A stretch of DNA of 64,000 nucleotides, taken from positions 1-64,000 of the forward strand of contig JBMOLF010000001.1 in assembly GCA_049325595.1 (NCBI GenBank). Direction: 5' to 3'. This document shows, one piece after another, positions 7,677 to 37,006 of this stretch. Both the position numbers and the translations under genes were made by a program. Positions within the stretch are counted from its first letter, which is position 1. Each line of letters begins with the position of its first letter. Source of the DNA: Candidatus Babelota bacterium (lineage in GTDB: Bacteria; Babelota; Babeliae; Babelales; Vermiphilaceae). The notes beneath the pieces were generated by a model, which saw only the letters and a list, made by a program, of their open reading frames with translations, did not search any database and was not told the DNA's origin.

Positions 7677-7705
7677 GTGAGCACCTGTTATAAACAAGTG
7701 CTCAC
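7677..7705 (-). terminator. Intrinsic terminator closing collagen cassette T1
   Basis: GTGAGCAC...GTGCTCAC stem just after the 7713 stop, followed by a T-rich run on the minus strand. Confidence 0.75.
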
Positions 7706-7712: not shown

Positions 7713-8939
7713 TTACGCAAGTCTACGTATGGTAAATGAAGCATTAGTAGCAAATACGTTGGGACTTGGATTAATTTGATTTAAAAAATTACTAGGGCTA
7801 TTGAAAAAAACATGTATTTCTAGTTCTATAACATCAGATGCTGCAACCTGAAGAATTACTTGCCCATTAACTTGTCTGCGCAATGTTGGCGACTCATTGG
7901 ATAATCCTGCTCCATATTGCCCGCCCTCAACGGCAGCACCATTTCGCAACAGTGCAACTTGCACACAAGGGTTTAAAGGCACCGAAGCACCAAAATTGGT
8001 AATACCTGTTACTGAGTAATTTATTTCGTACACACCAGCTTCTGAAAATGATATTGGGGATGTAAAAATGATATGCCCTATATTAAGCAATGGGCCGTTT
8101 GTTGAATAAACAATCTCTTGTCCCCATTGTGCTGTGGTGGGTGTATTTTTATAAACATAACCAAAGGCACGGGTAATAAATGTCGATCCCGTAGCACCAG
8201 TAGCACCGGGAAGACCACGTGCTCCTTGAGCACCCGTAAAACCAGTTAATCCCGTTGTCCCATCTGGCCCCGTTGCTCCAGCTATACCAAGCGCGCCAAG
8301 TGCTCCTTGAGGACCTTCAAGCCCCGTAACACCCGTAACACCTTGTGGACCAGTATTACCAGTAAAACCTGTTGCTCCTTGAGCATCACTTTGCAATCCC
8401 GGATTACCGGTGAGTCCGGTTGCTCCTGTTAATCCAGTAACGATTCCTCGTGGATCACAGTTAGTAATCGATCCACAAATAGTTCCGCACACCAAAAGGT
8501 TATTCGCTATGACATTACCTTTGACAATTAAACAATCTAATGTTTTATTTTTTAGACATGCGCGCTGTTCCAGTGTTGCAACAACCGTATGGGATCGAAC
8601 AGAAAGATCATGTTTGTACTGCTCTAATATTAACATTGCATTAGCATCAAGACATATATCAGATGCCATTGCTAACGCAGCATCACAAGCTTTAGCTGCT
8701 AATTCCAAGGGAACCAGATTGTAATCATACGAAAAAGCTACGCGTAATCCATCAAGAGCTGACTCGCGCTGCGGATCATTTTTTTGAATAACCAGTTGCT
8801 CAATAATCTCTTTTACGCGCTCAGGTACAAATACATATTCTTGATCACTTTGCACATGATTATCAGAAAATTTACCGTATGAATGGGGTGTATTCCATAA
8901 GCTTAATAGCAAAACAAATATAAGACATTTTTTTAACAT
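7713..8939 (-). CDS. Collagen-like protein, C-type chain of cassette T1 (~27 triplets, BclA/C1q-like head)
   Basis: Signal peptide, acidic helical N-domain, Cys neck, 5 triplets + SDAQ break + 22 triplets, head with GVYEINY, ends SFTIRRLA. Confidence 0.9.
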
Positions 8940-8955
8940 GATTATCCTTAAAATC

Positions 8956-10170
8956 TTATGTCAATCTTCTAATCATTAAAGAATAAGCTGTTCCAATTTG
9001 ATCACCGCCCATAGAATTAAGCACTGATAAATTAGTTGTTCCCAAATTTATCAGCTCAACCGTTGCCCCTGCTGGTATTGAGATAATAGCCTCGCCGTAA
9101 TCTTGGGCATTGGCAGACGCCTGAGCAAATATCGATGTTTGATCTACTACGCCGTTTACCCGTATACCAAATACACTTGGCGCCATTCCTTGAACTATGT
9201 AGCTAATTTTGTATAATCCCGCATTGGCAACCGTAATTGAAGTGCCACCGCCATTCAGCGTTACACCTGGAGTAACAGCAGGCAACGCACCCTGAAAAGC
9301 TGCTGGACTATTAGCAAGAATGGTACCCGAAACACCTGAGGCCGCTCCGGTTGTGTAAAAATAACCATATGAAGCTGCTGCTCCTAATAAAGGACCGCTG
9401 TTTCCTGAAAAGCCGGTAAGAGTATTGTTCGCTCCGGTATTGCCCGTTGCACCAAGTGCTCCGATTGAACCAGTAGGGCCAGTAAATCCGGTAAAGCCGT
9501 TAGGTCCTGTATTACCCGTCGAACCTGTATTTCCTTGAGCGCCGGTATTACCCGTAAAACCAGTAAAACCCGTAAGCCCTGTAAAACCAGTATCACCAGT
9601 CGGACCATTAAGTCCTGTTGGCCCTTGATTACCGGTCGCACCATTGGGGCCTATCAGGCCACCACTGGTTGCAGCTGAAGATGAGGGAACAGTTATTGAT
9701 CCATTAACAAATAGATTGCCACAGATATTTAATATGTTGGTAATTAATTGAGAAAATACTTTTGGCTTTTTGCGAATAGCATCATATTGGATATGAACTG
9801 CTGCTTCTTCATTTTTTATGAGCACAGAAAAATTCTTTAAGGACAACACATGCTCATCAATCTCATCGAGGTCTAAATATGCGTGAATTTCTTCAAATGC
9901 TTTTTTTGCAAGATCAAGCGGATATAGTGTGTTGCCAGCATTAAGCCACTGCAATAACTGCCTGCTATGAGTTCCAAAAGCGCACTTTTGTTGCAAAACA
10001 GACAGAGAATTACGTATGTAAGACGGAATATGCACATAAGCATCATCTTTGTGTGCCATAATTAGTTGTTGATCATCATTACTCAGATCAACAAGCTCTA
10101 TCATATGGGTATTGGCATATATACTGCTTACACTTACCATTACAATTAATAGAAATCTTTTTAGTATCAT
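8956..10170 (-). CDS. Collagen-like protein, B-type chain of cassette T1 (~29 triplets)
   Basis: Signal peptide, neck [11 protein letters not shown], 26 triplets + NTLT + 3 triplets, head with GLYKISY and QDYGEA, ends SLMIRRLT. Confidence 0.9.
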
Positions 10171-10179
10171 ATACGCACC

Positions 10180-11343
10180 TTATGCAAATTGTCGTATTAA
10201 AATAGCAGCACTTATATTGGTCACTGCAGGATTTGGCCCTGCTTGAGGATTAAGAGTTATAATAGTTGGTGTTGCAATCTCTGGCGTCGTCTCATTGCGT
10301 AAAGTAATAACATCACCCGCGTTAAGTTGAATAATAACTGACCCATTATTTTGCTTTGAAACGCTACCCGAGAAATAGCGCGAACCGGCAATAAAGGTAC
10401 TGTTTTGATACAAGGCAAGCTGATTAATCTGGGCACTATTGACATTGTAGGTAATTTCGTACGTACCTGTTCTTTGAATCACAATATCAGTGGAACCCGG
10501 ATTGTGTAAAATGCCGACTAGCACTGCATTGGTATCAAACGGAATTGCTGTAGATCCAGTAAACCCTGAGCCACCACTAATACTCGTAGCACCGCTACTG
10601 TAAATATAAGCAAGTGCTTGGTCTGCTTCGCCAATACCAGTAGCACCTTGTGGGCCCGTAAATCCGGTTAAACCTGTAATACCATTAGCGCCGGTATTGC
10701 CGGTATTACCTTTATTACCTTGAGCTCCCGTAAATCCAGTAAATCCCGGATCTCCCGTTATACCCTGTGGACCAGTATTTCCAGTTGCACCTTGCAATCC
10801 GCGCGCGCCGGCAGCTCCTTGATTACCGGTAAAGCCCGTAATGCCCGGATCTCCGGTAGCACCTGTAGGTCCCGTTGCACCTCTAGGTCCGACACCTGGA
10901 TCACACACAATGTTGGGGGCATTACAACAAACAGTTAAGTTCCCACAAATAAGTACATCTTTTTTAACACATACCTTGTTAAAGCGTTTGCATTGTTTTT
11001 TTACCTCTGTTGCGCTTAAAACAATATCAGCATTATTATGTGCAATTTGTTCTTGATAGTGTGCAACCGCTACTAGGTCTGCTTCACTACAGCTATTCAT
11101 ATCATGTACCGCAGCAGAAAATAATTGGCTAGGTACAACATTTTTTTCTTCTTCAATACTTTGGCTTAATGCTTTTAATGCTATTGATTGATCATTTGCA
11201 TCAGCCTGCTTTTTGATGATATGCTTAATTTCATCAGTTAAAATAACATACTGAGTCTCGGGTTTATCGGAATAAAACGTTAAATCAGCTCTAGCGCAAT
11301 AACTTATTGCGATAAGCATGATTACAAATAATTGGTAGATCAT
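10180..11343 (-). CDS. Collagen-like protein, A-type chain of cassette T1 (~28-29 triplets)
   Basis: Signal peptide, neck [17 protein letters not shown], uninterrupted collagen, head with GTYEITY and LNAGDVITLRN, ends ILIRQFA. Confidence 0.9.
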   Translation of the reverse strand: MIYQLFVIMLIAISYCARADLTFYSDKPETQYVILTDEIKHIIKKQADANDQSIALKALSQSIEEEKNVVPSQLFSAAVHDMNSCSEADLVAVAHYQEQIAHNNADIVLSATEVKKQCKRFNKVCVKKDVLICGNLTVCCNAPNIVCDPGVGPRGATGPTGATGDPGITGFTGNQGAAGARGLQGATGNTGPQGITGDPGFTGFTGAQGNKGNTGNTGANGITGLTGFTGPQGATGIGEADQALAYIYSSGATSISGGSGFTGSTAIPFDTNAVLVGILHNPGSTDIVIQRTGTYEITYNVNSAQINQLALYQNSTFIAGSRYFSGSVSKQNNGSVIIQLNAGDVITLRNETTPEIATPTIITLNPQAGPNPAVTNISAAILIRQFA

Positions 11344-11486
11344 TACTTCTCCCTTTTAATTATTAAATATTAATCCAGTCACACACAAAAATCAGTTCGG
11401 TATGGTTGCTATAGAAGCAACTGCCATTGAGCTCAAACATTAACCATAAAAAATGTTACGGATTTCATGTAATTATTCTTTACTAC

Positions 11487-12404
11487 TTATGCAATTTGTC
11501 TTATCAAGATTGATGCATTAATACTGTCTGCATCAAACCCGGCAGGTGGCGTTACTAAGTCAATATTATTAGCACCCGTACGAGCCGCTAAATTAATAAT
11601 ATCACCTGCATTAAGTTGAAGAATACCTTGTCCTCTAATTTGTAAGGGGGTACTAGGGCTATCAAAAAAACCTACACCACCACTTGTTCTAATTGCAATC
11701 ACTTCATAGGTAATTTCATATAATCCCGTATTATTCACCGTAATATCTATATCATTTACGGAATGAGTAATATTTTGTAATATGCCATTACTATTAAAAC
11801 TCACAAAACTTACGGCTGTTTGTGCAGCCGTATTATAAATATACGCATAACTCAATGCAACACCCGGTTCACCAGTAGCACCAGGAGCACCGGCAGCGCC
11901 AAGAGGACCCGTATTACCAGTAAATCCTGTTAGCCCCGTGATGCCAGTTTGCCCGGTAGCGCCAGTGTCTCCGGTAGCTCCTGGAGCGCAAGCTGACCCT
12001 TGGCAATTCAATCCATTAATAAATGCGCTATTGCAAACTAACAAATCACCACCAATGACCATATTATTTTTTACACAGAGTCGATTAAATATTTTATTTT
12101 TTTTGTGCGCACGCGCTACATCACAAACTATTTCCGGATCATGATTAAGCAGTGCATGGTAATAGGTAGCAACAACACTCATTTCATCGTGAGTAAGTAT
12201 TGTATGTTTATCTAACTCAGCAACACGTTGCACACAAGAATGTGAACAGCATGATGAATAATTTTCTATAATATGACAAATTGGCTCAACAGATGCATAA
12301 TAATCTATTGTTTGATTATGATCATGGGCAAAAAAATTAATACACCATATACTTAGAACAGCACATACGCTATTCATAAGTATTAGTTTTCTATTCTGCT
12401 GCAT
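11487..12404 (-). CDS. Orphan A-type collagen-like protein, shortened (~14 triplets)
   Basis: Neck [20 protein letters not shown]-type ending ASILIRQIA; N-domain, stalk and head all shorter than in paralogs. Confidence 0.85.
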   Translation of the reverse strand: MQQNRKLILMNSVCAVLSIWCINFFAHDHNQTIDYYASVEPICHIIENYSSCCSHSCVQRVAELDKHTILTHDEMSVVATYYHALLNHDPEIVCDVARAHKKNKIFNRLCVKNNMVIGGDLLVCNSAFINGLNCQGSACAPGATGDTGATGQTGITGLTGFTGNTGPLGAAGAPGATGEPGVALSYAYIYNTAAQTAVSFVSFNSNGILQNITHSVNDIDITVNNTGLYEITYEVIAIRTSGGVGFFDSPSTPLQIRGQGILQLNAGDIINLAARTGANNIDLVTPPAGFDADSINASILIRQIA

Positions 12405-12529
12405 ATACTTCTCCTTTTTACATGATAATACAGAGGAATGTTACCTATACTTCATACAAAAAAAGTAAGGTATTACGCAAAGGTTTAGAATCGCAGCAAA
12501 ACGAAAAAATCGTCGACTAGATAAGTGAA

Positions 12530-12557
12530 AAAAGCCGAAAATTTCTTTTCGGCTTTT
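12530..12557 (-). terminator. Intrinsic terminator closing collagen cassette T2
   Basis: AAAAGCCGAAAA...TTTTCGGCTTTT perfect stem 12 nt after the 12570 stop. Confidence 0.8.
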
Positions 12558-12569
12558 ATAATTTAAAAA

Positions 12570-13772
<1,203 letters not shown>

Positions 13773-14963
13773 TTAACTTGCAATACGTCTTATGAGCAAT
13801 GCAGCAGATGTTCCTATATTAGCGCCTCCCATGCTACCACTTAATCGAGCTTGCGCTTGAGCCGTAAAAATATTTACCAATGACACCGTGGTATTTGGAA
13901 CTGTTACCGTTAAAATTCCTTGTCCATACGCTTGCGAAAAATTATTGGGATTTCCGAAATTAAAGCTGGTATCCTGGACTCCATTTACAAATAAACTCCA
14001 GCGCGATGCACCTAATATATTGGTTGAAATAAAAGTAATTTCATAGGTGCCAGTATTTGCAATAGTAACTACCCCACCTGCTACCGACAATCCCACGGGA
14101 ACTGTAGGAATTGAATCGGCAAAAGGAACTGGACTACCTAATGGCACTACAACTCCTGTTCCACCGGTTATTAAAAACATAGCATAAGCTAATGGACTTA
14201 ATGGCGCCCCGTCTGGACCCGTTGCTCCCGTATTGCCCGTGGCGCCAGCAGAACCCACAACAGAAGGGCCTCTTGCTCCCGTTGGCCCAGTAAAACCGGT
14301 AAAACCAGTTGACCCCGTATTGCCGGTATTACCTGACGCACCTAATGCACCAAAAGCTCCTTGAGGTCCAGTAAAACCAGTAAACCCGGTGTCTCCGGTG
14401 TTACCGGTATTTCCAAGAGGACCTGTTGCTCCTTGCGCCCCGCGAGAGCCAGTTGGCCCAGTAACACCAGTTATTGGATCGAGTGAAGCCGTAACGTTAG
14501 CACAAATAAGACCTCCTACACAAAGATTGCCACAAATTTTAAGATTATTCGCACAGAGTTGGCAATACACTTTACATTTTTTCTTAGGAGTATAGTCGTT
14601 GTTTTTTTCAGAGATTACTGTAGTGTAAAATTGCTGAATGCAATCTTTGTATGGGCAATCTTGGGCACTCAAGAATTCACTAAATTTTAATACCGATTCA
14701 ATACCTAATCTAACCAATTCTACATTAACATAGTTATTTTTTTCTAATGCAGCACATAATTGCTGAAAATCATTGTCTACTAATAGCGCACATGTTCCAC
14801 GATTTAGAGCTTGTAAGCCCTCTTTAACACATTCAGGAAGACATATTTTAATAACTTGTTCTTCTGTTTGTGTTAATTCATTTTCTAAAACATCTGCTTG
14901 TAGTGGAAGGTATGGCAAGCATGCCAATATACCTATCATATATAAGTTTATACTCTTTTTCAT
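13773..14963 (-). CDS. Collagen-like protein, B-type chain of cassette T2 (~29 triplets)
   Basis: Neck [26 protein letters not shown], 23 + VV + 6 triplets, AYAMF, YGQG, ends ALLIRRIAS. Confidence 0.9.
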
Positions 14964-14974
14964 ACCAGTCCTTT

Positions 14975-16186
<1,212 letters not shown>

Positions 16187-16411
16187 TACTAACTCCTTAT
16201 TAAAAATAGAACGAATTATTTATTTTTTACAAAAAATATTAGTGTTAAATCAATACAACTGAAAAATAGACTCTCTCACAATTTCATTATTCTTGCTGAA
16301 CAAGCAAATAAAATAAAAGGACGACATTCAACACCGAGTACATTGATTATTCTCAGATGACCATTCAAGATCTAAAAAAATTACTTGTTTTCTCACAACA
16401 AAAAAACAAAC

Positions 16412-16435
16412 TCCCCCGAGTAAAACTCAGGGGGA
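16412..16435 (-). terminator. Intrinsic terminator closing collagen cassette T3
   Basis: TCCCCCGAGT...ACTCAGGGGGA GC-rich stem followed by a T-run on the minus strand. Confidence 0.75.
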
Positions 16436-16457
16436 AAATTTGAATATCAAAAATAGG

Positions 16458-17777
<1,320 letters not shown>

Positions 17778-17787
17778 GTATTTCTCC

Positions 17788-19152
<1,365 letters not shown>

Positions 19153-19163
19153 GAGCTACCCTT

Positions 19164-20534
19164 TTACCCAATTTGACGTACAATTATTGATGCGGCTACA
19201 TTTTGATTATCAGTACTTGTCGCAAATCCTGTTGAGCTTACTACAATTGAAACTCCAGAAGCATTCACACATCGAATCGTAAGTACATCTCCTGCATTTG
19301 CAGAAAAAACTACCCTACCAGTAACCGATGCCGGTGTCTTAAACCCAGTAATAAAATAAAGAGTTGCTCCTGGTATTAAACTTCCATTAAGAGCAGCCGT
19401 AAATCGAGATGTAGTAGCTGTTCTAATAGTATACAAAACCTCATAGGTACCGGTAGTTGAAATCTCAATATTAGTACTTCCCGGTGCGTGAGTAATACCA
19501 CTTATTGGTCCATTAGTAGTAAATGGAACTGAAGCACTATCAGCTAAAGTAGTTGGATCACCTCCTGTCACGCTCGTTGTTCCACTAAAATAAGCGTATA
19601 AAAATGCTGCATCGCCAGCTGCAAGACCTGCTGCACCAGAATTTCCAGTAAAACCGGTAAAACCCGTAAAGCCAGTCGGACCTGTATTGCCGGTGGCACC
19701 CAATGCACCGAGCGCCCCCCGAGCGCCTATAGGACCCGTAAAGCCGGTGAATCCGCTCGGGCCGGTGTTGCCTGTAGCGCCCAATGCACCGACATTTCCT
19801 TGCGGGCCGGTAAAGCCGGTAGAGCCTGTGTCACCGGTAAAACCCGTGTTACCCGTATTACCCATCGCTCCTGCTGCACCCTGCGGACCGGTAAAACCGG
19901 TAAAGCCCGTTGGGCCCGTAGGTCCAGTAAAGCCAGTCTCGCCAAGCGCGCCTAAAGCGCCCAATGCACCTTGTGGACCGGTAAAACCGGTAAAACCTGT
20001 ATCACCTGCGGCTCCTGTTGCACCTGTTTGGCCTGAACCTCCTATAGCACTGCATGGCTGGGTAATGTTTGGATCCGGGCAAATAGTGCCGCATACAATT
20101 AAGTTGCCCCCAATACGTGCATTCCCACAAACAAAAAGTTCATTAAATGTTTTGCACCGTTTACGCACGGTATCTTCGTCGCAGACAACGCAATCATCTA
20201 AATTAATTAGTTGTTCATAATAGGCATTAACAATATTTAAATCTTGTTGATCTAAAGACAATGCACGCAATTCTTGCGCTGCACATATCATTAACTCAAG
20301 TGGCATATATTCTAGAGTGTGATCAGCGCAGGCTGCTGCCAATGCCACTAATCCTGGGGTATCTTGCATTAATGATGGATCAATTTTGGTACCAATTGAT
20401 CTAATAGGAAAAGTTTTAGCATAATGTTGATTGGGATTGTTACTGGTAAAGGTAATCTGATTTTCTGCTCTTATTATCAAAGAAAATAGTAGCAATAGAA
20501 AAACAGAATTTCGTCTCCATGAGACTATATTCAT
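19164..20534 (-). CDS. Collagen-like protein, A-type chain of cassette T3 (~47 triplets)
   Basis: Neck [29 protein letters not shown], 47 uninterrupted triplets, ends IIVRQIG. Confidence 0.9.
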   Translation of the reverse strand: MNIVSWRRNSVFLLLLFSLIIRAENQITFTSNNPNQHYAKTFPIRSIGTKIDPSLMQDTPGLVALAAACADHTLEYMPLELMICAAQELRALSLDQQDLNIVNAYYEQLINLDDCVVCDEDTVRKRCKTFNELFVCGNARIGGNLIVCGTICPDPNITQPCSAIGGSGQTGATGAAGDTGFTGFTGPQGALGALGALGETGFTGPTGPTGFTGFTGPQGAAGAMGNTGNTGFTGDTGSTGFTGPQGNVGALGATGNTGPSGFTGFTGPIGARGALGALGATGNTGPTGFTGFTGFTGNSGAAGLAAGDAAFLYAYFSGTTSVTGGDPTTLADSASVPFTTNGPISGITHAPGSTNIEISTTGTYEVLYTIRTATTSRFTAALNGSLIPGATLYFITGFKTPASVTGRVVFSANAGDVLTIRCVNASGVSIVVSSTGFATSTDNQNVAASIIVRQIG

Positions 20535-20591
20535 TACCGACTCCTTTTTTTAGGTTGATTATTTTTTGCTTCAGAACGTTTGATCTTTGAA

Positions 20592-20620
20592 AGACTAGAA
20601 ATTTTTTTTTGAAAAATCAA
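20592..20620 (-). promoter_or_regulatory. Putative sigma70 promoter for cassette T3
   Basis: TTGATT-17 nt-TAGTCT on the minus strand, ~57 nt upstream of the 20534 start. Confidence 0.5.
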
Positions 20621-20635
20621 AAATAGTTAAAATAG

Positions 20636-20668
20636 AAAAACACCACCAAAAATATTGATGGTGTTTTT
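20636..20668 (-). terminator. Intrinsic terminator closing collagen cassette T4
   Basis: AAAAACACCA...TGGTGTTTTT stem flanked by A/T runs. Confidence 0.65.
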
Positions 20669-20796
20669 AGAAAATTTAAAATAAAGTTAAATCCCACTTT
20701 GAATCACAAAATTGCACTACCTTTTTGCGTAGGTAATAGCTTTCGGTCTGCTTTCTCCGTTTTTATAATTTCTTTAAAAACAATGCTATCGTAATA

Positions 20797-21960
20797 TCAT
20801 AATAACTTTCTCACATAAAGACTGGCAGTAACTGAACCGGGAAATTCAGCAGCATGTTGCAACGTTAAGGTATTAGTTATTGTGCCGGTGTTATTTAATA
20901 ATCGTACTGAGTCACCAGCATTTACAACGGCTATAAATTGACCATTCATGGGACGAGATCTGGTAGTTGCAAGTGTAGAACTTCCCGCTCCGTAGGTAGC
21001 AGCATTAAAAAGAGAATTAGATGAATCAATTGCTCGTATTTGAATTTCATTACTTGATGATGAACCAGTTTTAAACCCATTTACTTGGTAGGTAATTTCA
21101 TAAATACCATCAGACAAAAAAATAATGCTATCAGAGGTAACGGCCATATTTACTACTAATCCTACCGTTGCTAATGGTATGGTGCTTGCAAAAGGAACAA
21201 CACTCTGGTCGGTACTATAAATATAAGCATATGCTTCACTACCACCTGCTGGTCCGGTATTACCCGTTGGGCCTTGTTGACCAACAGCGCCTTGCATACC
21301 GGTAAAACCGGTAAATCCTGTAAAGCCGGTTGGCCCTGTATTACCTATGGCGCCAAGTGCACCTCGCGAACCTTGTGCACCGGTATTGCCGCTATTACCA
21401 GTTTGTCCTGTCTGTCCTATTGCTCCAGAAAAACCAGTAGGACCTTGTGCTTGTTCTTGCAAACCAGCATTGCCGGTAAGACCAGTCTGACCAGTAAAAC
21501 CAGTTAGCCCTGTTAAGGTGCTTATGCAATTTCCCGCAAATGTTCCCTGTATACTACCTTGCACTATTAAATTATTCACACGCACTGATTCAGTAACACA
21601 CAAATTATTAATCACTTTAGGTCTTGATCGCACTTGGTTTGCAATCATTTTTTTTATACTTATTATTTGTGACTCAATCTGCTCATGTAAATGCATATGA
21701 TTTAAATGATTCATTTCAAGATATGTTTGCATTTCAATTAATGCATTTAATACTAGCACGCTTGAAAGTTCTTGATACCCATCCAATTGCGCATACTTTA
21801 CTACTTGTATGGCTGGCGACACATTAGTTTGGGGAATTAAGTGGGTCACTTGTTGAATTAACTCACTCATCTCACCAGACAAACTTACCAGACATTCATG
21901 AGCGTTAAGCACAGTATTAATAGCACAAAATAGAACGAAAATAGTTTTATTAATTTTCAT
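20797..21960 (-). CDS. Collagen-like protein, C-type chain of cassette T4 (~29 triplets)
   Basis: Neck [21 protein letters not shown], 6 + EQAQ + 23 triplets, ends SLYVRKLL. Confidence 0.9.
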
Positions 21961-21972
21961 ATTTTCTCCATT

Positions 21973-23112
21973 TCAAGCAATACGTTTAATTAATAGCGAT
22001 GCAGAAGTCGTAATATCTTGCCCTCCTAAATTGCCAAGCAAATCTGCATCAGTGTTGGGGTTGGCATTAATTAATGAAATCGTGGTATTTGCAGGAACGG
22101 TTATTATGGCATGACCATAGCCTTGACCAAAATTACCAGCTAGGCCAGGCAAGCTGGGGTCATACAACACACCATTAATTGCCAATCCAAAAATATCTTC
22201 TGAGGTAACTATATGTACCACTTCATAGGTTCCCGTATTAAGAATGGTAATATTACTGCCAGAAAACGACATTCCAATGGGAATATCAGGAATAGAACCA
22301 GCAAATATTACTGATGTGTTATTTCCCGTTAAAGAAACGTTGCCCGTAACGTAGAACATACCAAAAGCAGGCTCAAGATTTATTCCTGCAGGACCGGTAG
22401 CGCCAGTTACCGTGTTAGTAGGACCTGTAGAACCAATATTACCCACCGCTCCGATAGCACCTTGGGCACCGGTAAATCCGGTAAAACCAGTAGGTCCTGT
22501 TGCACCAGTAGCTCCTGTTTGGCCAGAATTTCCTTGCGCACCTTGATTACCCGTATACCCAGTAAAACCGGTTTGTCCGGTAGGACCAGTATTACCCAGT
22601 GGGCCAGTTGCACCCTGAGCACCTTGTGTACCCTGTTCACCGCGGACACCTTGTTGCGGGTCGATTCGAAGATGAGAAGCACAAATAATTCCTTTAACAC
22701 ACACATTGCCACATATTTTGAGCGTATTTGCACACAATGTGTCATATGTTTTATTTTTTATTTTTTTCTTGCTACTCGATTCATCTAACTTTAAATTGTG
22801 CAAATAGTGCTTCATGCGTAATTTTAATGGCCAATCTTGTTCAGAAATAAATTCATCATATGTAAAAATTGATTCAAGCGCATTAATGAGCAACTGTTTG
22901 TTTATCCATTTTTTTTGCGCAAGCATATTGCATAGTTCTTCAAAAGTTTGATCAACCAACATAATGCGTGAGTTTCTCTTGAGATCAACCACTCCTGTCC
23001 GAACCCAATCAGGCACAAAAACTTTTTGTGTTTCATCATGCGTTATCGCACACATTTTTGAAGCAGTACCTACGGTTATAAACAATAAAATAAATAAAAT
23101 AAAATATTTCAT
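21973..23112 (-). CDS. Collagen-like protein, B-type chain of cassette T4 (~29 triplets)
   Basis: Start reassigned to MKYFILF (AGGAG RBS, removes overlap); neck [20 protein letters not shown], 26 + NTVT + 3 triplets, ends SLLIKRIA. Confidence 0.9.
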
Positions 23113-23120
23113 TCTCGCTC

Positions 23121-24335
23121 CTAATCTAATTGCCGAATAATAAGTGTGGCTGCCGGATTCACCCAAATGGGTGGAGTATTTCTGCGCGTTTGAGAAATTA
23201 CATAGGTTTCGTTATTGGAATTTACGTTGCGAATGGTAACAACATCACCAGCTTGTGCGTTGAAAATTACCTGTCCATTAACAAAAGGAAAATTAAATGT
23301 ATCAAGACCAGAGTTGTATAACCCACCACCAAGTAATGTGTCGTTTACATAAACCCCAAATTGAATTGGCGCAACATTAAGAAATGCTGAAACGCGATAC
23401 AATACCTCATAACGACCAGGGTTAACAATAGTAACCTGCGAACTTCCTATGGTATAATTAACTGATTGTATTGCTTCAGATGTGCCAAATGGAATAGGCG
23501 CTCCAAGTAACACTCCCGTAGGCCCTGAAACCGAAATAACACCTGTCGCGATTAAAAAAGCATACGCTCTTAATGATGCGGGTATTCCTTGTGCACCACT
23601 ATTTCCCGTAAAACCAGTAAAACCTGTCTGACCGGTTGGTCCAGTAAAACCTGTTGCTCCTGCAGCTCCAACAGCACCTTGTGGTCCAGTAAATCCCGTA
23701 AAGCCGGTGTTCCCATCTGCTCCCGTAAACCCAGAGTCTCCGGTAGTACCTTGCAAACCAAGACCACCGGTATTTCCAGTAAAACCGCTAAAACCCGTTT
23801 GCCCCGTTACACCGGTTGTACCGGTATTTCCCGTGGCACCTTGGGGACCAAAACAAGAAATTTCCGGATCTGGGCACATGGTATTACACACCACCAAATT
23901 ACCACCAATACATGCATTACCTTTGACACATAATGTGTTAAATTTTTTACCATTACCACGTAGAAAATTTTCTGCAAAAACAACATCTTCATTATGTGTA
24001 AGAAGCTGCTGGTAATATTCTTTTATGAGTTGGTAGCTACTCGTATCTGGTGGCAAGAGCATTAACAGTTCGTGTAATGCGCAAATCATTATTTCAAGCG
24101 GCACATACTCAACTTCATTGTTTTCTGTACTATGTGCGATTGCTTTGAGCCCACTATTATTGGCTCGTAGATCGGCAGATAAGGTATCAATTATTTGTTT
24201 AACCGGTTGGATAATAGCAGCATATAATTGATGATCATGATTGTTTTCAAAAACAATTTTTTCATCAGGTTGTGTATAAACATGATAGGGAACAATGAGC
24301 ATTAGCATAAGCATAATGCCAAAACCTTGCTTCAT
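23121..24335 (-). CDS. Collagen-like protein, A-type chain of cassette T4 (~30 triplets)
   Basis: Neck [28 protein letters not shown], 30 uninterrupted triplets, ends LIIRQLD. Confidence 0.9.
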
Positions 24336-24380: not shown

Positions 24381-24457
24381 AGCTTAAAAAAAGAGATGCT
24401 GAAAAACCAAGTATAACCGTGCTAAATAGTTGCAATTTTTCTGTTGATGCATATAAT
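24381..24457. promoter_or_regulatory. Back-to-back putative sigma70 promoters between the collagen array and the glycosyltransferase cluster
   Basis: Plus strand TTGCAA-16-TATAAT (24430-24457); minus strand TTGGTT-18-TAAGCT (24410-24381). Confidence 0.5.
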
Positions 24458-24491
24458 CCACAAAAAAACTATTCAAAAAAGGGAACACTCA

Positions 24492-26264
24492 ATGAAGCAT
24501 CTATTTAAACATCTTATCTATTTGTGTACTTTTATTTTTTATCCATTTTTACTCTATGCAACTCACAAATCATTTGTAGTAATTATTCCCTCATATAACA
24601 ACATTCAATGGTGTGAGCAAAACTTACGTTCGGTGTTTGGACAAGAATACGACAATTATCGCGTAATATATGTCAACGATTGTTCTGATGATGGCACTAA
24701 AGAACGAGTTGAACAGTTGGTTGACCAACTTGGTCAAAAACATAGATTCATGATGATCAATAACACCACACGCCGAGGCGCCATGGCAAATTGGTTCATG
24801 GCCGTATGGTTGTGCGAACCACACGAAGTGGTGGTAAGTTTAGATGGTGATGATTGGTTTGCGCATGAGCGTGTGCTTACCTATTTAGATTCTGTATATC
24901 AAGATCCTGAGGTATGGATGACCTATGGACAATTTATTATCCACAACAACAATCAAATTGGCTGGTGTAGACAAGTTTCTTCAGAAACCATTGAGAAAAA
25001 TCAATTTCGTGACGATGCCTGGGTTACTTCTCATTTAAGAACTTTTTATGCAGGTCTTTTTCATGGCATCCCCAAAGAAGATTTCATGGTAAATGGCCAA
25101 TTTTATCAATCAGCTGCTGATCTTGCTATTATGTATCCGTTATTAGAAAGAGCCGGCAAACATAGTCGCTTTATTCCTGAAATTTTGTATGTGTATAATC
25201 GCATTAATCCAATAAATGATGAACGCGTAAATTATAATTTACAAACTAATCTTGGCATTTATATTCGCGCACAAAAAAGACACCAACCAATCGAGCGATT
25301 TGATGACGCTACCGAACAACGCACCATTTATATTCAAAAAGGATTGTGGGGTTGTTTGTTTGATATTAATTCTCATCACAATCGCGATAACTGTTTATAC
25401 CCTACTTATTTACTTCGCATTGAAATGGCAAAAAAAGGATACCGTTTAGTAGAAACAGATACTATTGTTGGTCATCATAACGCACATGCTATTGTTTGCT
25501 TTGATGTACCAATGGCAGAACTGGAGCGTTTACCAGAATATCCAACAGAAAAATTATATTTGTTTTTGTGGGAACCACCATCAGTTTCACCTCATAATTA
25601 CAATCAAGCTTTCCATTATCCATTTGCTAAAGTTGCTACCTGGATGGATGAATTGGTAGATGGTAAAAAATACCATAAAATGTATTACCCGGTTCGCAAT
25701 GAAGTTATTAAAGATGTTGTTCCTTTTGAACAAAAAAAATTGGCAACCATGATTGCCTTTAATAAAAATTCAGGCCATCCTCGACAACTCTATGGCCAAC
25801 GTGCAGAGCTCGTAAATTTTTTTGAGCACTATCATCAAGAAGATTTTGATATTTACGGCAACTGGTGGCCACAGCATTACAAAACTTATAAAGGAACGGT
25901 AAAGAGCAAAGTAGATACGCTAAAACATTATAAATTTGTATTTGCCTACGAAAACATCGAGGGCATATCAGGTTATGTTACTGAAAAAATGTTTGATGTG
26001 TTTTGGGCTGGAGCTGTTCCCGTGTATTGGGGCGCAGACAATATTGAACAATATGTTCCTAAAAATTGTTTTATTGATCGGAGAGATTTTGCCGATAACG
26101 AACAATTGTATCAGCATCTTAAAAACATGAGCAAAGAAACCTATGAGCAATACCTTGTTAATATCAAAAATTATCTTGCATCATCTCAATCTACAATGTT
26201 TAGTCCACTCAATTTAAGCAACGTATTTAGCCAAATGGTTTTAAATGAACCATTATCAGCATAG
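24492..26264 (+). CDS. Bifunctional GT2 + GT10 (fucosyltransferase-like) fusion with signal peptide
   Basis: VIIPSYN, NDCSDD, LDGDDW (GT2); LWEPP, YKFVFAYEN, GYVTEK, PVYWGA (GT10); start moved to MKHLFK, downstream of the promoter. Confidence 0.88.
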   Translation: MKHLFKHLIYLCTFIFYPFLLYATHKSFVVIIPSYNNIQWCEQNLRSVFGQEYDNYRVIYVNDCSDDGTKERVEQLVDQLGQKHRFMMINNTTRRGAMANWFMAVWLCEPHEVVVSLDGDDWFAHERVLTYLDSVYQDPEVWMTYGQFIIHNNNQIGWCRQVSSETIEKNQFRDDAWVTSHLRTFYAGLFHGIPKEDFMVNGQFYQSAADLAIMYPLLERAGKHSRFIPEILYVYNRINPINDERVNYNLQTNLGIYIRAQKRHQPIERFDDATEQRTIYIQKGLWGCLFDINSHHNRDNCLYPTYLLRIEMAKKGYRLVETDTIVGHHNAHAIVCFDVPMAELERLPEYPTEKLYLFLWEPPSVSPHNYNQAFHYPFAKVATWMDELVDGKKYHKMYYPVRNEVIKDVVPFEQKKLATMIAFNKNSGHPRQLYGQRAELVNFFEHYHQEDFDIYGNWWPQHYKTYKGTVKSKVDTLKHYKFVFAYENIEGISGYVTEKMFDVFWAGAVPVYWGADNIEQYVPKNCFIDRRDFADNEQLYQHLKNMSKETYEQYLVNIKNYLASSQSTMFSPLNLSNVFSQMVLNEPLSA

Positions 26265-26271
26265 GAGTAAT

Positions 26272-27180
26272 ATGAAGAATTATGTCGCGTTGTTTTTGTT
26301 TGTGATAAGTTTTGTGCATGCACAAGAACCGTTACATTTTTGTACTGCCTCTGATAGTCGATATTTTAATTGTCTTATTAATTTAATTGGCTGTTTACAT
26401 AAACATAATTTTGATCAAATTGGCACCATTGCAGTATTTGATCTTGGTATGACGGCTGAGCAAAAAGAACACGTATCACGCATTGCCAAAGTAAGCATAC
26501 ATGACGTTGAAAAAGTACATCCCGATATTATCACCCCCATGCAAACTACGCATTGGGGAAAAATGGTACCTGGATGGTATGCATGGAAAGCAGTAATCAT
26601 TAAACAAGCGCTTGATATGGTAGATTGTGTGTTATACATCGATGCAGGAACGACTATTTACAAACCTCTTGATGATTTATTTAAGCACATTCGCCATGCT
26701 GGTTACTTTTTTCATAATGGCTCACCCTGGTGCATTCAACAAGAAACTACACAATATGTCATCAACAAATTTGATCTTGCAAGCTCTGAAAAAAAATGGT
26801 TATTAGATGAAGACATTAAAGGCCTCGAGGCTGGGTTTATGGGGCTAACAAGACGGGTATATGATTCTTTTGTAATGCCCGCATATCAATTGGCGCATGA
26901 TTTACGAAATTTTGCCGATGATGGTAGCTGCCGGGGTGGATTTGGCAATTGCCGCCATGATATTCCCATATTTTCTATGATCGCTCTTCTTAATGGATTA
27001 ACAATTTATCATCATTTTAAACAACCATGCCAAACCTTATGGCTCGATACTGATGAAGGAAAAATACCATTTCATATCGCGTGCAATCCACAAGATCGTA
27101 CATCACAAACGCATGTTTATTGCTCACGCATGGATGTATCGGGAATACAAGAAAATATACAAGCTATTCGCTTAAAATAA
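26272..27180 (+). CDS. Putative GT-A fold glycosyltransferase (DUF1647-like) with signal peptide
   Basis: AGGAG RBS before MKNYVALFLFVISFVHA; TASDSRYF, FDLG, YAWKAVII, LYIDAG, CRHD. Confidence 0.65.
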   Translation: MKNYVALFLFVISFVHAQEPLHFCTASDSRYFNCLINLIGCLHKHNFDQIGTIAVFDLGMTAEQKEHVSRIAKVSIHDVEKVHPDIITPMQTTHWGKMVPGWYAWKAVIIKQALDMVDCVLYIDAGTTIYKPLDDLFKHIRHAGYFFHNGSPWCIQQETTQYVINKFDLASSEKKWLLDEDIKGLEAGFMGLTRRVYDSFVMPAYQLAHDLRNFADDGSCRGGFGNCRHDIPIFSMIALLNGLTIYHHFKQPCQTLWLDTDEGKIPFHIACNPQDRTSQTHVYCSRMDVSGIQENIQAIRLK

Positions 27181-27197
27181 CCAATAAAGGAAATACT

Positions 27198-27854
27198 ATG
27201 AAACGCACTTTTTTATACACATTCTTAATTTCAGGATCGTTACACGCTTACGAGCCTAAAGCTCATGAACAGTGGTGGCATGCAAATTGTACTGAAAAAA
27301 TACCCTTATACAGACAGTGGTATGGCGATGCAGATATAAAAGAGCGTACTTTTATATGCAAATACCTTAAAGACAAGCAATATCAATCAATTCTTGATGT
27401 CGGCTGTAGTTTATGTTCTTTATTCTTTGCGATAAAAAAAGAAAAAGTTGCTATTGATTACACGGGACTTGAAGTAACAAAAGCTTTTGTTGATCGTGCT
27501 GCTAAGTTTGGTATTCCCGTAATATATGGCTCAGTAGAAGAATTGCCATGCCAAGATAATAGCTATGATTGTATTTACATGCGCCATGTACTTGAACACT
27601 TAGAATATTATGAAAAAGCTATTACTCACATGATTCGAGTAGCCAAAAAAGAGGTAATTATATCGTTCTTTAAACACCCTAACAACTGGATGCCTGACAC
27701 TATTGAATTGGTAAAAGTTGATTCCATGCCTTTGTACCATAATCAATATAATAAACTTAAGATTGATACGTTTGTAAAACAAAATCCTAAAGTTGCTTCA
27801 TTAAAATGGGATTATATTGGTAACGATTATGCATTATGCATAACTCTTAAGTAA
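27198..27854 (+). CDS. Class I SAM-dependent methyltransferase with signal peptide
   Basis: MKRTFLYTFLISGSLHA; ILDVGCS, ELPCQDNSYD, RHVLEH. Confidence 0.85.
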   Translation: MKRTFLYTFLISGSLHAYEPKAHEQWWHANCTEKIPLYRQWYGDADIKERTFICKYLKDKQYQSILDVGCSLCSLFFAIKKEKVAIDYTGLEVTKAFVDRAAKFGIPVIYGSVEELPCQDNSYDCIYMRHVLEHLEYYEKAITHMIRVAKKEVIISFFKHPNNWMPDTIELVKVDSMPLYHNQYNKLKIDTFVKQNPKVASLKWDYIGNDYALCITLK

Positions 27855-27861
27855 AAAACAT

Positions 27862-27887
27862 AAAAGCCGCTAATACTAGCGGCTTTT
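27862..27887. terminator. Bidirectional terminator between convergent genes
   Basis: AAAAGCCGCTA...TAGCGGCTTTT perfect stem. Confidence 0.85.
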
Positions 27888-27899
27888 TCTTTGGTAATT

Positions 27900-28634
27900 T
27901 TAGTTTTTAAAATAGCGATCAAACTCATCACACCAGCAACGTAACATTTCTTGTTCGGTTGCATCTACTAAACTTTCACGTAATAATTCTTTTGCTTGTG
28001 CAGCAAGCACTTGCCCGGCCATATCTTTTTTCTTTTTAGCACGCACAATAATATTTGGGCACAATTGCCATTGGGTGTATTCAAACGAAATATCTTCAAA
28101 ACCCACCGCTGAAAGTACATGTTTAAACTTTTGCGCATACCACCCATCCCAATGCACTGCCCAATGTGCTTCATGGGAGCCAAAAATATGGCGTAAAGTA
28201 CTTTGTTTTTGAACATACGAATAAGAATCATTCATAAGAATATGCATACTTCGCTCAAAATCTGGTGTTTCAATAATTAAATCACCGTCATTTTCAAGCC
28301 AGGTATGCCAATTACACAACAAAGCTAGAGCAACTGAACGACTAAAATGCTCAAACATATGATGTGATCTGATTTCTTTTATACTATTTGCCGGCAAATT
28401 AAGATGAGAAATGTCAGCATGTATATCGGCGGCAATCTGTTTTTGAACTGTCTGTTCTGATTGAGGATAATCAATATTTATATACCCATCAAACTTTATT
28501 TGACCACAGCCTAAGTGTAATTTTATAGGATGCGAGTAGGCGGTAATATCAAATGAATAGTGAGCAGAAGATTGATTAACAATACCAGTAGTAACGCACA
28601 GCAAAGTTATTAATAGAGGTATTAATGGTAACAT
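27900..28634 (-). CDS. SAM-dependent methyltransferase (type 11-like) with signal peptide
   Basis: KLHLGCG, GYINID, SHHMFEHF, LIIETPD. Confidence 0.85.
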   Translation of the reverse strand: MLPLIPLLITLLCVTTGIVNQSSAHYSFDITAYSHPIKLHLGCGQIKFDGYINIDYPQSEQTVQKQIAADIHADISHLNLPANSIKEIRSHHMFEHFSRSVALALLCNWHTWLENDGDLIIETPDFERSMHILMNDSYSYVQKQSTLRHIFGSHEAHWAVHWDGWYAQKFKHVLSAVGFEDISFEYTQWQLCPNIIVRAKKKKDMAGQVLAAQAKELLRESLVDATEQEMLRCWCDEFDRYFKN

Positions 28635-28646
28635 CTCATTTCCTTG

Positions 28647-29462
28647 TTAATTAAATAGGTTAGTAAGTCGTTGATAAGAAGGTTTTGCCAAAATTTTATG
28701 CATTAAACTCAATTGCAATTGGTGATCGATGCGATGATCGCTAATAGGATTTGCATTATTGTATATATACAAGATTTCATTAATAAAGCGATAACGATCA
28801 CCAGCCATTTCAATCATTGGTGCCATCATCGCTTTATCCCACGTCATCATTAAAAAGTTGCCATCATCATCACACAAATCTTTTTGAGCGATGCGTTTAA
28901 ATAAGCCCGCGTAAAATGTTCTTAAATGCGACATTGGTAAATTTTGAAATCGTCTAAAAGCATTATTTTTTACTACCCAAGACGGAAAATCTTCACAAAA
29001 TCCACGGTGCCCTGTTGGATATTCTTGATATTGGCCAAAAGTAAGCCACACATTATTATCTTGATAAACTTCATTTAAAAATGATAACACATAAGGATGT
29101 GACAACCAATCATCACCATCGAGTGTTAAAATAATTTCTTCATCACGACAACTGTGAATGGCATGATATAAGTTATATGTTGCACCATGACGTTGCTCAT
29201 TATTAATCAACGTCACCCTATGATTCATCTTATGGCTTGCAATACAATCTAAGACCAAGTGATAAGTTTTATCCGTGGAACAATCATTAATATAAATAAC
29301 ACGATAGTTAGTATAATTTTGTGCAAAAACAGAGGCTAAATTATTTTGGCACCATTGTGCATTGTTATAAGAAGGAATTACAATCACAAATGGTTTTTCT
29401 GATTTGTTGTTAGCCTGACATAAAAAAATAAATGATAATAAGATCATCCATAAATGCTTCAT
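28647..29462 (-). CDS. GT2 family glycosyltransferase with signal peptide
   Basis: VIPSYNN, INDCSTD, LDGDDW, SHLRTFYAGLF; paralog of the 24492 N-domain and of 32275. Confidence 0.9.
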   Translation of the reverse strand: MKHLWMILLSFIFLCQANNKSEKPFVIVIPSYNNAQWCQNNLASVFAQNYTNYRVIYINDCSTDKTYHLVLDCIASHKMNHRVTLINNEQRHGATYNLYHAIHSCRDEEIILTLDGDDWLSHPYVLSFLNEVYQDNNVWLTFGQYQEYPTGHRGFCEDFPSWVVKNNAFRRFQNLPMSHLRTFYAGLFKRIAQKDLCDDDGNFLMMTWDKAMMAPMIEMAGDRYRFINEILYIYNNANPISDHRIDHQLQLSLMHKILAKPSYQRLTNLFN

Positions 29463-29617
29463 ATTATTTCCTTTTTTTAATATTAAAATTTGTAATGGTT
29501 CTACTATGTATAGCGGCTAAAGTCAATTAATAGACCGATCATTTTCTTATTGTCTTTAATTCATTTTATTGGTAGAACACAAAAAACCATTTTTCGATTT
29601 TTTACAAGGAGTTTTTT

Positions 29618-30370
29618 ATGAGGCATCGTATTTTATTTAGTTTTATAATTCTTACTCTTTTAAACGTGTTCAACTTACAAGCCACCAAAAAATCAATTGG
29701 CTTATTAATTGTCGCTACGGGTAAATATATTCAATTTGTTCCACCATTAATTGAATCAGCACGCAAATATTTTTGTGTTGATCATACCATACATTACTAT
29801 GTATTTACCGATGGTACTATGAACACTGGCCAAGATACCACATTAATTTTCCAATCACGCTTAGGCTGGCCATATGATACCCTAAAACGTTTTTCTATGT
29901 ACGCTCAACACGCTAACCGCTATTGCCACCATGATTATTTATTTGCACTTGATGCTGATATGCAATTTGTTGATTATGTTGGTTCAGAAATATTATCTGA
30001 TCGGGTAGCAACATTACATCCTTGTTTGTTAAATCAACGCGGCACGTATGAAACACGTAATTGTTCAACAGCTTATGTTGCACCATACGAAGGTACCTAT
30101 TATTTTGCTGGTGGTTTTAATGGTGGGAGTACTACAGAATTTATTCGTATGGCCCAAACTATTACTGCTAACATAGAAAAAGATTTGGAGCATAATTTTA
30201 TAGCACTCTGGCACGATGAAAGCCATGTTAATCGGTACTATATTGATAACGAACCCACCTGTATTTTATCACCCGATTATTGTTATCCAGAAGGATGGGA
30301 TTTACCTTATCACCCGCGCCTGCTTGCCTTATTAAAAGATCATAAAACATTTCAACAAGGAGCTATATGA
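29618..30370 (+). CDS. GT6 family (ABO/alpha-1,3-Gal(NAc) transferase-like) glycosyltransferase with signal peptide
   Basis: IGLLIVATGKY, YYVFTD, LDAD (DxD), YYFAGGFNGG, WHDESHVNRY, LSPDYCY. Confidence 0.92.
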   Translation: MRHRILFSFIILTLLNVFNLQATKKSIGLLIVATGKYIQFVPPLIESARKYFCVDHTIHYYVFTDGTMNTGQDTTLIFQSRLGWPYDTLKRFSMYAQHANRYCHHDYLFALDADMQFVDYVGSEILSDRVATLHPCLLNQRGTYETRNCSTAYVAPYEGTYYFAGGFNGGSTTEFIRMAQTITANIEKDLEHNFIALWHDESHVNRYYIDNEPTCILSPDYCYPEGWDLPYHPRLLALLKDHKTFQQGAI

Positions 30371-32179: not shown

Positions 32180-32274
32180 ATTCATTCCTTTTTTTATTGA
32201 TGTAATGATTGGTTTATAAAATATTAAATTTTCATATACTAAGCAAATCAACCTCTTAAAAAAAGGACCGTTTA

Positions 32275-33084: not shown

Positions 33085-33088
33085 ATTT

Positions 33089-33120
33089 AATAAGAGCTCG
33101 TCTAATCACGAGCTCTTATT
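33089..33120. terminator. Bidirectional terminator between convergent genes
   Basis: AATAAGAGCTCGT...ACGAGCTCTTATT 13-bp perfect stem with T-run. Confidence 0.85.
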
Positions 33121-33126
33121 TTTTTG

Positions 33127-34092: not shown

Positions 34093-34247
34093 GACAAACT
34101 CCTTATTTGTGTTGATTAATTTGATGTGAACGAGTTTTACACAGTTGATTGATAATTGCAAAATATCTTTTATGATTTGCTTTTTTTATAAAGTTATGCA
34201 ACGGTATTAGCACCATTTCAAAACAACTTAAATCAAGGGGTTTTCTT

Positions 34248-37005: not shown

Positions 37006-37006
37006 G

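Follow-up and report, generated by a model that had tools for sequence, protein, structure and literature searches.

Tandem A-B-C trios of collagen-like genes in a Candidatus Babelota bacterium: comparative evidence consistent with heterotrimeric collagens

The first 64,000 nucleotides of contig JBMOLF010000001.1 (Candidatus Babelota bacterium, assembly GCA_049325595.1), hereafter the window, carry between positions 7713 and 24335 a cluster of 13 collagen-like open reading frames (ORFs), all on the minus strand and predicted to encode secreted proteins. Twelve of the 13 genes form four groups of three, or triads, transcribed in the order T4, T3, T2, T1, and each triad follows the gene order A-B-C. 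Comparison with a sister genome suggests, with a probability that can be put at roughly 0.65, that the A, B and C chains of each triad co-assemble as an ABC heterotrimer. Indeed, each gene set comprises one chain of each class, the stalk lengths of the three partners are coupled, and interruptions of the Gly-X-Y repeat (breaks) fall at coincident levels in partners although their sequences are unrelated; a mixed triple helix is the simplest account of these features taken together.

All 13 proteins share the same anatomy. A signal-peptide-like hydrophobic N-terminus precedes an N-domain some 140-170 residues long, after which a Cys-rich junction (..N.L.V.GN..I.GNL.V.G.I..) leads into a Gly-X-Y stalk in which Gly-X-Thr triplets abound; a C-terminal head of about 125-155 residues closes the chain. 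The number of triplets ranges from 14 to 47, PF01391 scores above its cut-off in 13 of the 13 genes, and the chains belonging to triads are about 390-460 amino acids long. Breaks and triplets were read by a register-aware parse of the 13 minus-strand ORFs, and the pattern described by the original prediction was recovered in full, with all ten breaks at their stated places. A four-residue break follows 5-6 triplets in all four C chains (SDAQ, VLAQ, VLAQ and EQAQ). The B chains of T1, T3 and T4 carry an N-x-x-T break exactly 3 triplets before the head, and the A chains are unbroken (29, 47 and 30 triplets in T1A, T3A and T4A) except for T2A. In T2, both A (GI) and B (VV) are broken after triplet 23, with 6 triplets to follow, and C carries an extra LA break.

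The window is bacterial, with about 36% guanine plus cytosine, and belongs to a genome of 1.29 Mb in 24 contigs (G000); housekeeping genes flank the collagen region. An independent assembly of a public sequencing run (X1), which may be the source sample, matches positions 13247-16186 and 12570-13249 with 0 differing letters and 0 gaps, and a 261-nt contig from another study (X4, depth about 2) spans the T2B break letter for letter. The breaks are therefore not an assembly artefact. Three runs from other studies, labelled soil, bioreactor or unlabelled, also yielded contigs of only 151-261 nt (depth about 2-3) that agree letter by letter with portions of T2 (window 12990-16144), too few to point to a habitat.

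The sister genome (G001), from the same genus, is that of Candidatus Dependentiae bacterium Noda2021, an isolate that multiplies in Vermamoeba (PMC8812299). Its 1,222,284-base contig contains about 26 such genes within 35 kb, corresponding to eight triads. In a maximum-likelihood tree of the heads of 38 chains from the two genomes, the B heads form a clade of 12 supported by a Shimodaira-Hasegawa-like approximate likelihood ratio test (SH-aLRT) value of 98, the C-type heads a group of 11 (SH-aLRT 87) and the A heads a group of 12 (SH-aLRT 83). Outside the main C group lie the unpaired window gene X, which pairs with G001 gene 16 (99), and G001 gene 3, which stands alone. Each complete triad of both genomes comprises one chain per class, in the order A-B-C. 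Furthermore, the subtrees of the three classes mirror each other, T3 corresponding to G001 genes 5-7 and 11-13, T2 to genes 8-10, and T1 to genes 17-19 and 21-23, which argues that whole triads were duplicated. Comparisons between classes with hhalign gave 98.3-99.4% for the N-domains and 99.0-99.4% for the heads (99.4% and 99.0% for the C-head profile against the A and B head profiles). As both N-domains and heads are homologous across classes, the chains are full-length ancient paralogues.

Some irregularities of the G001 locus deserve mention in their own right. Triad f includes two tandem C genes, 19 and 20 (L001:8873-11641); gene 20 is broken by STAT at the level of the B-chain NTLT break, and gene 19 is devoid of such a break. 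Two class A genes (triads b and f) are split by a frameshift in the repeats or at their start (L002:11966-13386 and L001:12930-14248), which could reflect true pseudogenes, variants due to slippage or errors in long reads.

Coupling of stalk length provides the first argument for co-assembly. Each stalk was measured from one alignable anchor, the Leu within the NL.V.G motif of the junction, to a second, the head's first conserved aromatic residue. The lengths obtained, triad by triad, are 111/113/113, 166/168/170, 112/113/115 and 108/115/111 in G000, and 111/110/109, 104/111/109, 166/169/167, 112/110/108, 129/137/135 and 105/104/106 in G001. The range within a triad is only 2-8 residues, against a span of 104-171 residues across triads. 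The B and C chains were then permuted among triads, using 10 of the 12 triads (the set excludes X, the additional C gene 20 and both G001 triads in which the A gene is split). The summed within-triad ranges amount to 42, compared with 342±50 in shuffled sets, and 0 of 20000 shuffles gave a sum as low. The coupling also concerns changes in length. Between T1 and its G001 orthologue (genes 17-19), one 24-residue gap is found in each of A, B and C, the G001 A gene, which is frameshift-split at the very start of its repeats, being read in one frame only. Since the 24-residue change affects all three chains, the matching of lengths is not explained by inheritance alone. The three gaps sit in sequence contexts that are unrelated in A, B and C.

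The second argument comes from the breaks themselves, two partner breaks being counted as coincident when they lie within 3 residues of the same level. The same triads show 13 coincidences, compared with 4.39±1.69 after shuffling (P about 5e-5). The excess persists when positions are anchored at the N-terminal side (10 against 3.58±1.66, P 0.0006), when the 7 short triads are taken alone (11 against 3.28±1.70, P 0.0002) and when G001 triad h is removed (6 against 2.12±1.15, P 0.002). Same-level partner breaks are found in T2 (A and B) in G000 and in triads a, e, g and h in G001. For example, G001 genes 15 and 16 are both broken after triplet 3, and genes 1/3 and 2/3 coincide too. In G001 genes 24-26, partner breaks share three levels: about 37-39 residues before the head anchor (AST in A, SS in B, IN in C), about 22-23 residues before it (SV in A, IT in B, none in C) and about 11-14 residues before it (ATT in A, SL in B, IT in C). 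As these examples and the GI/VV pair of T2 illustrate, breaks at one level differ in sequence between partners. The T2 orthologue (G001 genes 8-10) displays the ordinary pattern, with an unbroken A chain, SVQT 3 triplets before the head in B, and LLAQ only in C; the changes seen in all three T2 chains are therefore specific to the lineage of the window.

Several observations weigh against this interpretation or limit its reach. On a coarser measure, the number of triads with at least one coincidence, the excess is much smaller (6 of 10 against 3.39±1.16, P 0.03). The four G000 triads taken alone provide 1 coincidence (T2 A/B) against 0.25 expected (P about 0.25); the window alone is thus statistically insufficient, and significance is reached only with the sister genome. 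More than half of the coincident pairs (7 of 13) come from G001 triad h. The analysts chose the anchors, the tolerance of 3 residues and where gaps are placed within repeats, and the triads, being related by duplication, are not independent units in the shuffles. Aromatic residues of partners are found at zero offset 14 times, compared with 9.2±2.4, with no peak at lag 0. The breaks typical of classes B and C are unmatched in partner chains and the A chain is unbroken, so that a mixed helix would contain 'incommensurate' interruptions (PMC11923368). Finally, orthologous cassettes with this N-domain are found in two genomes only, besides isolated metagenomic proteins. The proposal that coordinated breaks among partners point to co-assembly thus gains support from the coincidences of the sister genome, from the shuffles and from the co-changing lengths, but not from the window by itself. 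Likewise, independent drift of break positions among partners, which would have spoken against the proposal, is not what is seen, coincidence exceeding the shuffled level, but over these two genomes and the isolated metagenomic proteins rather than over many genomes.

Other regularities were searched for. Break lengths modulo 3, from which a register might be derived, follow no consistent rule across triads. The sums of cysteines per triad mix even and odd values and depend on uncertain signal-peptide cleavage sites, which makes them uninformative. A separate observation concerns Phe/Tyr triplets of partners, which are offset by about 9 residues from A to B and from B to C in 28 pairs, compared with 16.3±2.8 in shuffles; this lag was picked after a scan, which inflates its P value. 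With such an offset, a mixed helix would have its aromatic residues at even intervals along its length.

Breaks that recur throughout a class form a category distinct from the triad-specific ones. The C break has the context GNxG[SL]Q-xxAQ-GATG. As xxA[QR] or an equal-length variant, it is present in 4 of 4 G000 C chains, in 7 of the 9 C-type chains of G001 (in genes 20 and 23 as equal-length variants that have lost the preceding Gly as well) and in the metagenomic proteins P0017, P0030, P0031 and P0036; the basal C-type genes 3 and 16 of G001 are devoid of it. The B break, 11-15 residues before the head anchor, is found in 3 of 4 G000 and 6 of 8 G001 B chains and in metagenomic P0002, P0003, P0005, P0006 and P0052. 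Among the orthologues of T3 type, its commonest form (5 of 7) is Gly-x-x-Thr followed by GATGPTG, that is a one-residue Thr insertion. This form is probably ancestral, and the N-x-x-T of the window reads as the same insertion with Gly replaced by Asn. Conservation across two species and metagenomic relatives indicates that the B and C breaks are class characters and not noise.

These class characters also bear on the alternative given the most weight, though rated unlikely, according to which the chains do co-assemble and the breaks are tolerated scars without a kink or register function. Once one chain is interrupted, the helix would be loose at that level and further indels there in the partners would become neutral. 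Such an account accommodates the heterogeneity of same-level breaks in sequence and length (AST/SS/IN; GI/VV; SL/IT), whose phases are not simply balanced, the resemblance of the LA break of T2C to a small deletion inside a common stalk motif, and the variety of forms that the B break takes among orthologues (T, VT, NLVT, SVQT, SLLVT). However, although the sequences have diverged by 50-70%, the B and C breaks keep their positions in both species and in the metagenomic relatives, and few stretches of the stalk are as well conserved as the motifs flanking them (GNxG[SL]Q-xxAQ-GATG and T-GATGPTG).

It is improbable that each class instead forms its own homotrimer, A3, B3 and C3 being co-transcribed and displayed side by side with equal lengths imposed by a common height of the heads or by their working as a set. 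BclA, which carries the nearest solved head, is a homotrimer, and the unmatched class-constant breaks of B and C, awkward for a mixed helix, would pose no problem here. Nevertheless, separate homotrimers leave unexplained the triad-specific breaks, unrelated in sequence, that occur at one level in different genes, as well as the change affecting all three T2 chains while the orthologue keeps the standard pattern. Furthermore, triads of about 105, about 135 and about 167 residues coexist in one genome, which does not fit a common height, and the strict 1:1:1 organisation with one chain per class has outlived many triad duplications. Concerted evolution by gene conversion or unequal crossing-over between neighbouring repeats, without selection on a joint structure, is very improbable: repeats are prone to recombination (X resembles a collapsed triad, two G001 A genes are split inside repeats, and stalk length changes in blocks of 8 triplets), but when the whole region was searched for repeats, the collagen parts of partners proved no more than about 60-73% identical in DNA, with no long highly similar stretch, the best match between genes (86% over 138 nt, T2C-T3C) joins chains of the same class from different triads, same-level breaks differ in sequence and flanks, the collagen regions retain class-specific features, and the 24-residue differences lie in unrelated contexts. 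The low DNA identity of partners and the unrelated sequences of their breaks together indicate that homogenisation is not the cause of the matching.

If A, B and C do co-assemble, they would combine in a 1:1:1 ratio to form one mixed triple helix with a pseudo-threefold ABC head as its cap. As in C1q, the terminal domains, which are homologous yet differ from chain to chain, would hold the register from either end. The class breaks of B and C would each displace their own chain by a single residue, close to one of the stalk ends, and the levels at which two or three chains are broken would be local hinges, by analogy with C1q and collagen IV. This specific role of the breaks, as hinges or register elements, is held with much less confidence than co-assembly itself. 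The product would then be a surface fibre built on the C1q plan and probably serving attachment to the host; surface location, glycosylation of the stalk and host attachment are inferred by analogy with BclA and Pasteuria.

By sequence, the heads are probable members of the BclA_C/C1q-like family. BclA_C (PF18573) is at or above its 38-bit cut-off in 3 of the 13 proteins (T1A 48.1, T1B 38.5, T3A 38.0) and below it in 6 (T4A 31.1, T2B 28.6, T2A 27.3, T3B 23.7, X 21.2, T1C 18.3), and no BclA_C match at an expect value (E) of 0.1 or better was found in the other 4 (T4B, T4C, T3C, T2C). The B-head profile matches BclA structures (PDB 1WCK, 3TWI) with E of 5.8e-5 to 1e-3 and C1q C-chain structures with E of 0.03-0.05. 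The best score against the gC1q family PF00386, that of T1A (E 0.013, 16.2 bits), stays under the cut-off of 23.7. Kinship of the heads to C1q thus appears to lie only at the superfamily level, via BclA_C.

The N-domain has a much narrower distribution. An AlphaFold model of the A-class N-domain displays a confident helical core at about residues 33-128 (predicted local distance difference test, pLDDT, 83-97) followed by a disordered junction. Searches gave no usable match in the ESM Atlas and, for the model, no Foldseek match in the PDB at E of 0.001 or better; NCBIfam returned only generic collagen adhesin models far under their cut-offs. Among 1.84 billion representative proteins, 40 match the N-domain at E of 0.001 or better and 13 at 1e-10 or better, and ten of these, when checked by name, proved to be either hypothetical proteins of Noda2021 or unnamed proteins from metagenomes. 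Within 61 genomes (G000 and 60 relatives), full-length matches occur in G000 and G001 only. A scan of genome contigs for further cassettes returned the Noda2021 locus alone. In metagenomes, a scan with a second alignment gave 182 pattern matches, 0 of them confirmed, and the P0002 query gave 68 loci swamped by collagen repeats, 0 of which had an N-domain match to the hidden Markov models of the classes.

The junction motif (for example window 20040-20140, T3A residues about 129-165) was seen to match repeat units of very large metagenomic proteins, one with phage tail-fibre and Peptidase_S74 domains and another with bactofilin repeats. This hints that the junction is beta-helical and trimer-forming, in which case folding of the helix could start from there, on its N-terminal side.

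Table 1. Collagen-like genes of the window and hairpins next to them, in the order of transcription.
Feature	Class	Positions	Strand	Description
T4A	A	23121..24335	-	signal peptide, ~160-aa N-domain, Cys-rich junction, 30 unbroken triplets, BclA_C-like head
T4B	B	21973..23166	-	26 triplets, NTVT (22405-22416), 3 triplets, head
T4C	C	20797..21960	-	6 triplets, EQAQ (21445-21456), 23 triplets, head
Terminator-like hairpin 3' of T4C		20636..20668	-	14-pair stem; within the 262-nt spacer before T3A
T3A	A	19164..20534	-	47 unbroken triplets
T3B	B	17788..19152	-	44 triplets, NLVT (18253-18264), 3 triplets, head
T3C	C	16458..17777	-	5 triplets, VLAQ (17265-17276), 41 triplets, head
Terminator-like hairpin 3' of T3C		16413..16433	-	9 pairs, 6 GC
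T2A	A	14975..16186	-	23 triplets, GI (15479-15484), 6 triplets, head
T2B	B	13773..14963	-	23 triplets, VV (14256-14261), 6 triplets, head; without the usual near-head Thr break
T2C	C	12570..13760	-	6 triplets, VLAQ (13233-13244), 8 triplets, LA (13155-13160), 14 triplets, head
X		11487..12404	-	single gene, 305 aa; 14 triplets only
T1A	A	10180..11343	-	29 unbroken triplets; BclA_C 48.1 bits
T1B	B	8956..10170	-	26 triplets, NTLT (9415-9426), 3 triplets, head
T1C	C	7713..8939	-	5 triplets, SDAQ (8379-8390), 22 triplets, head
Terminator-like hairpin right after the T1C stop		7677..7705	-	13 pairs

Some entries of Table 1 allow more than one reading. The listed start of T4B, TTG at 23166, overlaps T4A; an ATG at 23112 is likelier and gives a signal-peptide-like start and an 8-nt spacer. 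The T2A break can alternatively be parsed as GIG/ST and is of the G1G type under both parses. In T3C, an extended domain adds two upstream triplets and a Gly-to-Ala triplet (APT). Spacers are 8-16 nt within triads against 143-271 nt between units, a spacing consistent with operon-like triads. Terminator-like hairpins lie 3' of 3 of the 4 C genes; since the hairpin scan shows no overall enrichment (19 found against 14.4±4.0 in shuffles), they are weak support for operons. The promoter scan was uninformative (47 sites against 52.2±8.1 in shuffles).

The single gene X has a composite ancestry. The nearest relative of its N-domain is that of G001 gene 14, a class A gene of triad e (42% over 132 residues), and its head is 70% identical to that of G001 gene 16. 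X is a chimera, probably what remains of a whole A-B-C triad of type e that recombination between its collagen repeats reduced to a single gene.

Other genera of the family have their own adjacent trios of collagen genes with matched stalks (genomes G030, G029 and G009). In G030, the first trio has stalks of 244/245/248 residues and heads 37-38% identical to each other. The second (L079:3172-7963) has stalks of 275/278/279 residues and six break levels common to all three chains, and at two of these levels all three chains have a (G/A)PCCT motif, suggestive of disulfide knots that link the chains within the stalk. G029 (L076:4530-20002) harbours three tandem trios (143/147/146, 198/202/206 and 111/114/113) that end in a different C-terminal domain of about 325 residues, and 7 of the 9 chains have a Cys-containing break (CT or CF) after 2-4 triplets. 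The G009 trios have stalks of 294/299/292 and 525/521/522 residues. As the breaks shared within the trios of these three genomes could be ancestral, the trios support the coupling of lengths more than that of breaks.

Genes next to the triads were also noted. Directly upstream, an island of about 17 kb (window 24444-41406) groups genes for glycosyltransferases (GT2, GT6, GT10) and for FkbM or other methyltransferases. It includes a 606-residue GT2+GT10 fusion and several ORFs without Pfam family, and by analogy its enzymes are candidates for the glycosylation of the Thr-rich stalks. More collagen-like genes, of other architectures, lie on the minus strand at 41473-56760 and 146-1039, three of them with a DUF5122 beta-propeller N-terminal part. 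One adjacent pair (52809-54611 and 51364-52806), with BclA_C-type heads and stalks matched in length (248 and 246 residues), might co-assemble as well.

Three known systems provide points of comparison. C1q is encoded by clustered paralogous A, B and C genes; its chains, made of a collagen stalk and a jelly-roll head, form an ABC heterotrimer in which interruptions of some chains at the same level bend the stalk. The triads resemble it by their three paralogous adjacent chains with stalk and head and by the T2A and T2B breaks at one level, but sequence kinship is distant, the N-terminal domain is another one, and the heterotrimer of the triads is putative. C1q had been put forward as a precedent for chain-specific interruptions together with mannose-binding lectin; the former is apt, whereas the latter is a homotrimer, so that its interruption is not chain-specific. 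BclA, from the exosporium of Bacillus anthracis, is a glycosylated homotrimer produced from a single gene and has an exosporium-targeting N-terminus. The triads share with BclA a Gly-X-Thr-rich stalk and a probable C1q/TNF-like C-terminal head, and have neighbouring glycosyltransferases; they differ by three diverged chains per unit, an N-domain of about 150 residues without recognisable relatives and class-specific interruptions. In animal heterotrimeric collagens such as type IV, an interruption may likewise sit in some chains only, with differing lengths, and incommensurate sites are proposed, not shown, to kink the helix (PMC11923368). Unlike type IV and the other animal heterotrimers, the chains described here are bacterial and carry other terminal domains.

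The closest published analogue, likened by gene organisation and not by sequence, is found in a Bacillota endospore former, unlike the Dependentiae considered here. In the passages found of three reports, the Pasteuria collagen-like (PCL) genes of Pasteuria ramosa fall into groups 1-3 and form tandem triplets with one gene per group, fixed order and orientation, and triplet duplication, and polymorphisms of triplet PCLs associate with attachment to the host (PMC13233619; bioRxiv 10.1101/2025.03.22.644704, 10.1101/2024.02.09.579640). These passages do not treat chain composition, stalk-length matching or interruptions; in the text covered, 'heterotrimer' occurs 0 times in PMC13233619 and bioRxiv 10.1101/2025.03.22.644704, and 'trimer' 0 times in 10.1101/2024.02.09.579640. 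Andras et al. raise heterotrimers only as a possibility (PMC7743900).

Register-controlled collagens of mixed chains are held to be an animal speciality and are hard to engineer; to our knowledge, a mixed three-chain collagen has been shown physically only in animals so far. The Noda2021 genes are annotated as hypothetical proteins. A literature search on Dependentiae and collagen gave nothing on this subject by title or start of abstract, and one on bacterial collagen-like proteins and heterotrimers gave no natural bacterial heterotrimer among the matches listed. Bacterial collagen-like proteins are treated as homotrimers in a review (PMC8968730). What is new is therefore the occurrence, in another phylum, of a Pasteuria-type organisation together with a putative C1q-like architecture, as well as comparative support for co-assembly of a kind not found in print.

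The fullest version of the proposal is that Dependentiae make ABC heterotrimeric collagens, one helix per operon, with a pseudo-threefold head, B and C insertions fixing the register, co-evolved hinges and a Phe staircase of about 9 residues, widely in the family (trios of matched stalks being present in at least three other genera) and by convergence with C1q; this composite claim is rated slightly better than even. Under the homotrimer alternative, the genes would be an ordinary adhesin family, unusually coordinated in length. If the ABC reading is true, the triads would provide the first natural heterotrimeric collagen in a bacterium, with three short self-sorting chains and natural variants of length and interruption. 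They would offer a tractable model for chain selection, register and the effects of incommensurate interruptions, with a cultivable amoeba-associated relative in Noda2021 (PMC8812299), and a candidate scaffold for designed heterotrimers. They would also hint at how the long-known gene triplets of Pasteuria work. More largely, they would probably be the fibres with which members of a barely studied phylum, made up of intracellular parasites, attach to their hosts.

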